Below are positions 3,001 to 6,000 of a stretch of DNA of 64,000 bases, piece after piece. Position 1 is the first letter of the stretch; every line of letters begins with the position of its first letter. Location: NCBI RefSeq assembly GCF_057098645.1, contig NZ_CM169472.1, one strand, 5' to 3'. A program made the position numbers.

Positions 3001-6000
3001 GCTGGCAAACCGCTATGACTGGCAGCTCTTTCTGGAGGTGACCGGTCCCGGCGGCAGCGGCAAAAGTATCATGGCCGAAATAGCCACCCTGCTGGCCGGT
3101 GAGGATAACGCCACGTCGGCCACTATTGAGACGCTGGAATCCCCGCGTGAACGTGCCGCGTTAACTGGCTTCTCACTGATACGCCTGCCGGACCAGGAAA
3201 AATGGAGCGGCGACGGTGCCGGACTCAAGGCCATCACCGGCGGCGATGCGGTGTCCGTGGACCCGAAATACCGGGATGCGTACTCCACGCATATCCCGGC
3301 GGTGATTCTGGCCGTGAACAATAACCCGATGCGCTTCACCGACCGCAGCGGCGGCGTGTCACGCCGGCGGGTGATTATTCACTTCCCGGAACAGATAGCC
3401 CCGCAGGAGCGCGACCCGCAACTTAAGGACAAAATCACCCGCGAGCTGGCGGTCATCGTGCGTCACCTGATGCAGAAGTTCAGCGACCCGATGCTCGCCC
3501 GGTCACTGCTTCAGTCCCAGCAGAACTCAGACGAGGCACTGAACATCAAACGGGATGCCGACCCGACGTTTGATTTTATCGGCTATCTGGAAACCCTGCC
3601 GCAGACCAGCGGCATGTATATGGGGAACGCCAGTATCATCCCGCGTAATTACCGTAAATACCTCTATCACGCCTATCTGGCCTACATGGAGGCAAACGGC
3701 TACCGGAATGTACTCAGTCTGAAAATGTTCGGGCTGGGGCTGCCGGTGATGCTGAAGGAATACGGGCTGAATTACGAGAAGCGCCATACCAAACAGGGGA
3801 TACAGACCAACCTGACGCTGAAAGAGGAAAGCTACGGCGACTGGCTGCCAAAATGTGACGACCCTGCAACAACCTGACCCACCTGACCGGCATCTGCCGG
3901 TCTTTTTTTATCCCGACATCCCCCGAAGGTGAACAATCCACTGTTCACCCTTCACCGTATATTCACCCGTTATCACACTGAAATTAAAAGAGAAAAACGA
4001 AAGGTGAACAGTGTGAACAATCAAATCAAAAAAAACTTTTTTCTCCCTGCGTGATTTTCAGTGCAGGGGACTAATCGCCGGTATGAGTCACACCGGCAGA
4101 ATACCGGAGGTGAAGAATCGAATGTTCACCCTTCACCCATTATTCACCACCTATCATACTGAAATAAAAGGAGAAAAAAGAAAGGTGAACAGTGTGAACA
4201 GTTCTTTCGAAAAAAAATTTTTTTCCTGAGTTAACGTGCGTGAAGATACGTGTAAAAATTAATCGATAGATATTATATGTATAAGGATGTGTATAAATGA
4301 ATTATACTAGAAAAATATAAACGATTTGAATCAAATGTTTATATGGCAATTTTGACTCCTGTGATCTCCGCCAAACTTCCTCTTCTGAACTCTCCCGACG
4401 TCAACAAAACCCCTTTTAATCCCTTATATATCAGGCTTTCTTTGTGTACAGGGGTCAACCGACTCAACCTGTATCAAGTTGCTTTTGAGGATACTTTAGG
4501 GGGGTATTATTTCCTTTTGAAATATTAGCACCCCATAATGGGAAAAAGGTAATACATAACAATGGTTTTTAACAGTATCTTTGTTATACAAGGGGGCATT
4601 GAGGATATCAGGAAAAATCTCAAAATCGGTACGGACAGGAAACTACGTGGGCAGCAAAAACGTATGGTAACACCGGGAAATGCAACGCCCACCAGTCGGG
4701 CTAATCCACCACTCCAATCGTGGTTCGCAGTACTGCACACACGATTACCGGGCTATACAGGAGCGGTTTGGTCTGAAAACATCCATGCCGCGTAAAGGTA
4801 ACCGTTACGACAACACCTCAATGAAAAACTTATAGTAAACGCTGAAGAATGAAACTATCGTTTTAATAACCGGGATGAAGCCATCTAAGTAATACGGAAA
4901 TACATTGAGATTTTCTACAACCATCAGCGCCGCCACTCCCGTCTGGGGAATATCTCCCTGGTAGCCTTCAGGAAAAATATAACCAGATAACTGCGTAAAA
5001 AAAGAACAAATGGTGGTGTCCGCTATTGCCAGTATACCTGAGTTTACTGCCTTTCAGATTATCACAATCAATAGCGAACAGACTTTTGAGCTCTGTGCGC
5101 TTTTAACAAAACGTCCCTTTCTCCACTTTCACCGTATAATAATACATTATTTATTACCCCTCCAATAAAAACCGATATTACTAATCACATTTATTACCAC
5201 ACAATTTGATATCGGTTTTTATTAGTTGGTTACCCTTTCTTCGATTGCTCATAGGCAGCTAAATGATCTTTTAATGCCTGTGCAAGGGGCGGTAGTCCAC
5301 TAGGCCCTGTCGGTGGCGGTGGTGCCTGACGGGCGGGCTTAAAACCTAAAGCCTCAGGACCTTTCGATTTTTCATAGGCAGCCAAGTGCTCTTTTAATGC
5401 CTGTGCAATGGGCGGTAAAGGTCGGGATGCCCCGGATGCCTGTCCACTTGTCGGTGGCGGCGGTGCCTGACGGGCGGGCTTAAAACCTAAAGCCTCAGGA
5501 CCTTTCGATTTTTCATAGGCAGCCAAGTGCTCTTTTAATGCCTGTGCAATGGGCGGTAAAGGTCGGGATGCCCCGGATGCCTGTCCACTTGTCGGTGGCG
5601 GCGGTGCCTGACGGGCGGGCTTAAAACCTAAAGCCTCAGGACCTTTCGATTTTTCATAGGCAGCCAAGTGCTCTTTTAATGCCTGTGCAATGGGCGGTAA
5701 AGGTCGGGATGCCCCGGATGCCTGTCCACTTGTCGGTGGCGGCGGTGCCTGACGGGCGGGCTTAAAACCTAAAGCCTCAGGACCTTTCGATTTTTCATAG
5801 GCAGCCAAGTGCTCTTTTAATGCCTGTGCAATGGGCGGTAAAGGTCGGGATGCCCCGGATGCCTGTCCACTTGTCGGTGGCGGCGGTGCCGGACGAGAGG
5901 GAGTAAATGAAGTCACCTGGCTGCTCACATTAAAAATCGTTCTCGCATTAACATTCGACGAGCCTGGAGAAAAAGGGGAATGAACTTTCACCGGAGTAAG

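Follow-up and report, generated by a model that had tools for sequence, protein, structure and literature searches.

What occupies the short interval between the primase gene of a satellite prophage and the LEE (locus of enterocyte effacement), and does it still serve replication? The question is raised by a stretch of 64,000 nt from contig NZ_CM169472.1 of NCBI RefSeq assembly GCF_057098645.1, referred to here in its full length as the window, whose left end lies inside a P4-type satellite prophage. Comparison with phage P4 indicates that positions 3923-4223 are almost certainly the P4 crr (cis-required region) itself, namely the cis replication region of a P4-type satellite and a second site for the alpha protein besides the replication origin (ori). 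As far as can be judged from sequence, the crr is real and probably functional. It is also a textbook element that has been described before, and neither the prophage, integrated at the tRNA gene selC, nor its site beside the LEE virulence island of pathogenic E. coli is new.

The region consists of two direct repeats that share 83% identity and whose starts are 181 nt apart, leaving a 61-nt spacer between them. An earlier note on this DNA had described two direct repeats of ~120 bp with a gap of ~60 bp and several octamers in each; the layout proved to be 120 + 61 + 120 nt with five octamers per repeat, and the feature therefore stands, although its proposed coordinates (3928-4228) lay 5 nt too far to the right. 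Its placement behind an alpha-like primase gene and a terminator was likewise borne out, as the alpha stop at 3877 is followed by the terminator at 3885-3909 and, 46 nt after the stop codon, by the start of the crr at 3923. The proposed match to the P4 cis replication region was confirmed by alignment: the region shares 96.2% identity over 344 nt (E 6e-157) with positions 4291-4633 of the P4 record X51522, which are annotated as 'crr (cis required region for replication)', two copies of a 'crr 120bp direct repeat', ten copies of an 'ori type 1 repeat' and the alpha terminator. This match forms part of a longer one, in which window positions 6-4223 align with P4 positions 8509-4291 at 98.2% identity, covering the CI RNA, epsilon, ORF151, ORF106, alpha and crr.

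The ten octamers, present in both orientations, comprise five exact copies of TGTTCACC/GGTGAACA and five copies with one mismatch, against a chance expectation from window shuffles of 0.008 exact and 0.2 one-mismatch octamers per 301 nt. Only one further exact copy was found in the remaining 63.7 kb of the window. All ten are unchanged relative to P4 and coincide in position with the annotated 'ori type 1 repeat' features. The 12 differences that separate the 301-nt crr from its P4 counterpart are unevenly distributed: repeat 1 is free of them, repeat 2 has three and the spacer nine, so that 9 of 61 spacer positions differ versus 3 of 240 repeat positions (Fisher p 4.6e-5). Among P4, the window and the O145 and O157 copies, 19 sites are variable, none of them within the octamers.

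The protein that would act on these sites is encoded immediately upstream. The alpha gene differs from that of P4 at 38 nucleotides but its product at only six of 776 aligned residues (770/776 identical), which argues that alpha is under purifying selection. Matches to the Pfam families Zn_Ribbon_Prim, Toprim_3, D5_N, DUF5906 and Pox_D5 were obtained, and residues 671-770 match the origin-binding winged-helix domain of P4 alpha in PDB entry 1KA8 (E 1e-63); across the C-terminal winged-helix origin-binding region, residues 661-774, there are no differences from P4. The crr DNA and alpha protein matches together imply that the cis site and the trans-acting protein are both present and intact. 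The terminator between them is formed by a hairpin at 3885-3902 with a 7-bp stem (six GC pairs) and a 4-nt loop, followed by a run of seven T residues.

The spacer is predicted to fold, as DNA, with an energy of -13.9 kcal/mol (z -4.2), forming two GC-rich hairpins. One stem pair shows a double change from C-G to T-A between the window and LEE-negative strain CNREC_004-43 on one side and O145 and O157 on the other. A conserved structure for the spacer was considered and dropped, since the stem is broken in P4 and other genera carry an unrelated, shorter spacer. A search of the crr against Rfam returned no match, and two open reading frames (ORFs) of 41 and 48 codons that run across the repeats are taken to be by-products of the repeats. 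The coordinates of the crr and of its neighbors are compiled in Table 1.

Table 1. Features of the satellite prophage and the adjoining end of the LEE, in window coordinates.
Feature	Position	Strand	Description
CI immunity RNA (C4 antisense RNA family)	8-95	+	Rfam RF01695, 74.3 bits vs gathering score 45, E 1e-13, full model
epsilon (helper derepression), frameshifted	340-625	+	2-nt deletion in A-run at ~349-350
ORF151 homologue	618-1073	+	intact, 151 aa; ORF list; under the 98.2% P4 match
ORF106 homologue (DUF5375)	1209-1529	+	intact, 106 aa; ORF list, P4 annotation, RefSeq annotation of relatives
alpha	1544-3877	+	intact 777-aa protein with primase, SF3 helicase and origin-binding winged-helix parts; ORF list, protein matches
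t-alpha intrinsic terminator	3885-3909	+	corresponds to P4 'talpha' 4604-4628
crr direct repeat 1	3923-4042	.	120 nt; 100% identical to P4 4471-4590
Octamers of repeat 1, exact	3928-3935(-), 3942-3949(+), 4003-4010(-)		
Octamers of repeat 1, one mismatch	3960-3967(+), 4012-4019(-)		
crr spacer	4043-4103	.	61 nt; most variable part of crr; two GC-rich hairpins
crr direct repeat 2	4104-4223	.	120 nt; 3 differences vs P4 4291-4410, none within octamers
Octamers of repeat 2, exact	4123-4130(+), 4184-4191(-)		
Octamers of repeat 2, one mismatch	4109-4116(-), 4141-4148(+), 4193-4200(-)		
attR arm of selC-type integration module	4224-4353	.	unrelated to P4; shared with selC-integrated satellites
attR core	4354-4376	+	partial duplicate of selC (tRNA-Sec) 3' end, 23 nt, GACTCCTGTGATCT-CCGCCAAAC
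IS3-family transposase remnant	4683-5044		between attR and espF; 85% identical to sequences in many Stx-converting phages
espF	5230-6117	-	295 aa; LEE gene right of IS3 remnant

The conservation of the repeat unit extends well beyond P4 and its close relatives. A set of 80 loci encoding alpha homologues (56-87% identity) was drawn from other Enterobacterales with one genome per species, 77 of which were usable. When 48 distinct 120-nt units were aligned, the octamer columns were 90% conserved compared with 71% for the other columns (permutation p 1e-4), and a 3' A-run/T-run (AAAAAAA-N-TTTTT) was also conserved. A profile hidden Markov model (HMM) of the unit, searched downstream of alpha on the same strand, detected it within 1 kb of the alpha stop at 59 of the 77 loci and further away at 15, leaving three with none. 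Counting only units within 1 kb, loci whose alpha is at least 78% identical to that of the window carried two units in 13 cases, one in 23 and none in two; at 63-77% identity the corresponding numbers were one, four and two, and below 63% they were one, 17 and 14. From these counts the single 120-nt unit emerges as the conserved entity, and the duplicated form of P4 as the minority state.

Most loci without a unit within 1 kb have one 1-3.8 kb further downstream. An absence of crr in distant alpha homologues (57-70% identity), proposed from a k-mer count in the 600 nt after alpha, was withdrawn when the HMM found units at most loci. At several loci, for example L007, L020, L022, L023, L025 and L029, crr units lie 1.2-2.8 kb downstream of alpha, which suggests that cargo has been inserted between alpha and crr, or between units. 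In distant P4-like elements whose alpha is 57-60% identical (e.g., L052, L055, L057, L060 and L071), clusters of four to five GCATGCA heptamers recur at a fixed distance of ~3.2-3.4 kb upstream of alpha. The A-run/T-run stands at the 3' end of every crr unit, as AAAAAAA-N-TTTTTT at 4030-4042 and 4211-4223 of the window (unit columns 108-119); it is as conserved across genera as the octamers, carries no annotation in the P4 record, and might bend the DNA or melt easily. Within E. coli, 1,040 of 5,426 complete genomes were found to have the full two-repeat crr; every copy was chromosomal, and most had no annotated feature over them.

The other half of the replication system, the ori, lies outside the window. 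The window starts within the satellite at approximately P4 coordinate 8509, with ori, cos, int, sid, delta and psu to its left, and therefore holds only the CI RNA, the frameshifted epsilon, alpha, crr and attR. The earlier note had spoken of a prophage remnant, a description that is not borne out: the window simply opens inside the element, and the satellite is full length in O145:H28, O157:H7 and CNREC_004-43. In these three, the core set of int, psu, delta, sid, alpA, epsilon and alpha is complete and the P4 cos junction, including its 19-nt cohesive end, is conserved. The gene order of the relatives is selC-int-hotspot-cos-psu-delta-sid-ori-alpA-CI/icd-eps-orf151-orf106-alpha-crr-attR, and the defense genes between int and psu vary (gapS4a, a DEAD-box helicase or AIPR). 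The ori of the O145:H28 element contains six exact octamers, situated ~2.4 kb upstream of the alpha start and 4.8 kb from the crr, and no exact octamer was found in that element outside ori and crr; the octamers of the crr recur in the ori of a related element.

At the right end, homology to P4 breaks off at the last base of repeat 2 (~4223-4226). The arm that follows (4224-4353) is identical or nearly so in the selC-integrated satellites of O145 and CNREC_004-43, and it weakly resembles (78% over 37 nt, E 0.054) the DNA upstream of int in attL. Since P4 homology ceases exactly where the integrase-specific arm begins, the crr is assigned to the replication module rather than to the attachment arm; it has stayed constant relative to P4, while the arm differs between P4's own type and the selC type. 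Beyond the arm, the 3' end of selC matches the region of the attR core at 88% over 33 nt, and GACTCCTGTGATCT occurs exactly and only once in the window. In LEE-negative CNREC_004-43 the same satellite is flanked by selC and setC/yicL and ceases to resemble the window directly after the selC-like core, which identifies 4354-4376 as attR and as the right end of the satellite, 130-150 nt past the crr. A third selC core was sought beyond the LEE, at its far end, since with it the integrase could excise satellite and LEE jointly, but the window contains a single copy. To the right of attR, the order of IS3 remnant, espF, whole LEE, yicL and nlpA, on to yidJ, is collinear with O145:H28 strain 12E115 at 99.9%.

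This boundary coincides with an abrupt change in divergence. Compared with O145:H28 12E115, the window shows 61 differences in 236-4346 (1.4%), one in 4347-9000 and 24 in 21841-64000; the LEE and its chromosomal flank differ at about 25 positions in 59 kb (0.04%), with ~0.04-0.07% for the adjoining LEE, and the satellite is ~30 times more diverged than the LEE that it adjoins, with the step ending at the attR core. Set against its counterparts in O145 and O157, the satellite diverges by 1.2-1.6%, although the LEE is ~99.9% identical. The best match in the collection of complete E. coli genomes has 99.2% identity in the satellite part and ~99.9% in the LEE and its flank. Because the step falls at attR, the satellite has been exchanged or recombined independently of the LEE. 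A further reading, in which a satellite still alive and of recent exchange, and no fossil, lies next to the LEE, is one that we hold to be very unlikely.

A working scheme for the crr can be drawn from P4. The model of alpha, ori and crr acting through looping and replication reportedly goes back to Flensburg & Calendar 1987, Ziegelin et al. 1993, 1995 and Yeo et al. 2002. After excision and circularization, alpha would bind the TGTTCACC octamers of both ori, ~4.8 kb away, and crr through its winged-helix domain, bridge the two sites through a DNA loop and open the ori; bidirectional theta replication of the circle would follow, with alpha as both helicase and primase. The crr would be required in cis without being the start site itself, and would remain silent in the integrated state, under repression by the CI RNA (window 8-95). 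Yeo et al. 2002 is cited in PMC2777425.

The principal alternative accepts the crr as such by descent but regards it as a functionless relic, left in a satellite immobilized beside the LEE and decaying, whose repeats persist for want of time. The frameshifted epsilon of the window copy, the ISEc8 directly beyond attR in O157:H7 copies and the lack of crr annotation in most sampled E. coli genome records are consistent with such a relic, as is the report that the P2-type helper of this lineage is defective in O157 Sakai, where the resident P2-like prophage lacks most morphogenetic genes (PMC2669165). We nevertheless consider a relic unlikely: alpha is full length and differs from P4 at 38 nucleotides but only six residues, substitutions have avoided the repeats and all octamers, and relatives retain an intact attR, cos, ori and int. 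Moreover, the contrast between 1.4% divergence in the satellite and ~0.04-0.07% in the LEE, with its step at attR, implies that the module was exchanged recently, by an integration that would not be expected of a dead element or possibly by homologous recombination. Several considerations weigh against a crr at work in the window copy: the frameshift in epsilon may mark an element that is starting to decay, or an assembly error; the ori is outside the window, so that the ori/crr pair is visible only in relatives of 98.6-99.2% identity; looping and the precise function of the crr are taken from the P4 literature; and, with crr idle in the integrated state and the helper defective in O157 Sakai, present selection for replication may be weak.

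Two further readings leave the repeats functional and change what they do. In one, the crr would be mainly a negative site for copy number and incompatibility, titrating or handcuffing alpha in the manner of P1 incA instead of serving as a positive co-origin. Its octamer clusters match those of ori and lie far from it, which is the geometry of plasmid control loci, and the variation between one and two units among relatives would suit a dosage element. In P4, however, genetic work defined the crr by the need of replication for it in cis (its GenBank label is 'cis required region for replication'), a positive role, and this makes a mainly negative function highly improbable; a negative role could coexist with the positive one. 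A reading of the repeats as arm-type binding sites of the integrase, and hence as part of attR rather than of replication, draws on their distance of only 130 nt from the attR core and is hardly credible. P4, whose integration site we take to be leuX, and the selC-integrating element of the window have crr sequences that are 96% identical, whereas the interval from crr to core does not resemble P4 and tracks the selC-type site. In addition, X51522 annotates the attP arm repeats and int of P4, and the octamers match those of ori and not the repeats near int. The crr as a cis replication region therefore remains the preferred reading.

Distant iteron sites that cooperate through protein-mediated looping are known from R6K, where the gamma origin acts with the alpha and beta origins, and from handcuffing at P1 incA. 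The likeness to the crr is a functional analogy only, in that clusters of initiator-binding repeats act in cis kilobases from the origin; the initiator families are unrelated, P4 alpha being a fusion of primase, SF3 helicase and winged helix, and kinship in sequence is not expected. The closest counterpart is the P4 crr (X51522/NC_001609, 4291-4590), which shares with the window the placement after alpha and t-alpha, the 120 + 60 + 120 arrangement and all ten type I octamers, and differs by eight substitutions and one extra base in the window spacer and by the flanking arm, which here is of the selC type. The element as a whole is the known 933L-type P4 satellite (CP-933L) of the LEE of O157:H7 and O145:H28. 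Since Perna et al. 1998, the O157-type LEE has reportedly been known to have a P4-family prophage at its selC end. With the cryptic prophage 933L at the selC end of the LEE in O157:H7, O55:H7 and O145:H28, the element shares its locus and the order selC-int-...-alpha-crr-attR-IS3 remnant-espF; unlike it, the window copy is 1.2-1.6% diverged, has no ISEc8 and carries a frameshifted epsilon. The name '933L and LEE PAI' (PAI, pathogenicity island) appears in PMC3378721, and insertion of the LEE at selC in O157 and O145 is reported in PMC3893438; a full-text literature search for a P4 family prophage with LEE and selC returned no match. P4-like satellites in Enterobacterales (Moura de Sousa & Rocha 2022, PMC8628076; Rousset et al. 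2022, PMC9122126) have alpha and epsilon as core markers, and the word crr is absent from PMC8628076. The profile search described above detected the 120-nt unit after alpha at most of the 77 loci, mostly singly and not as a pair.

Among the neighboring genes, epsilon, annotated as 'derepression protein', has an A-run of six residues in P4, O145, O157 and CNREC_004-43 that is reduced to four in the window. The deletion lies four codons into the gene and shifts the frame to a stop at 379-381, after 13 codons; it could represent real decay or a homopolymer assembly error. On the LEE side, O157:H7 carries an additional ISEc8 between attR and the IS3 remnant, which the window lacks. Positions 5308-5895 of espF consist of 141-bp tandem repeats (EspF proline-rich repeat modules), and the O145 gene is of the same length as that of the window, while that of O157 strain 9000 is 141 nt, or one repeat unit, shorter. 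Further into the window, nepI shows a length difference of ~54 bp relative to O145:H28 12E115, with alignment blocks that overlap by 15 nt in the window (43759-43773) and skip 39 nt in the relative, suggesting a short tandem duplication or deletion.

As a discovery the crr carries little weight, the P4 genome record having marked it for decades. What is new is modest: attR is placed precisely, divergence changes abruptly there, epsilon is frameshifted, and one crr unit is broadly conserved among P4-like satellites. The practical value lies in annotation, as crr is unmarked in most sampled E. coli genome records, and the exact right end of the satellite at the attR core now divides the mobile satellite from the LEE proper. 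If the epsilon deletion is real, the window copy would be without epsilon-mediated switching-on of a resident P2 helper. Should alpha, ori and crr fire while the satellite is integrated, for example after failed excision, which we likewise consider very unlikely, replication forks would enter the LEE and amplify it, and in that event a P2-type helper could package LEE-proximal DNA. Modest yet usable leads on the turnover of selC satellites next to a major virulence island come from the divergence step, from the wide occurrence of the single unit and from the frameshift in epsilon.

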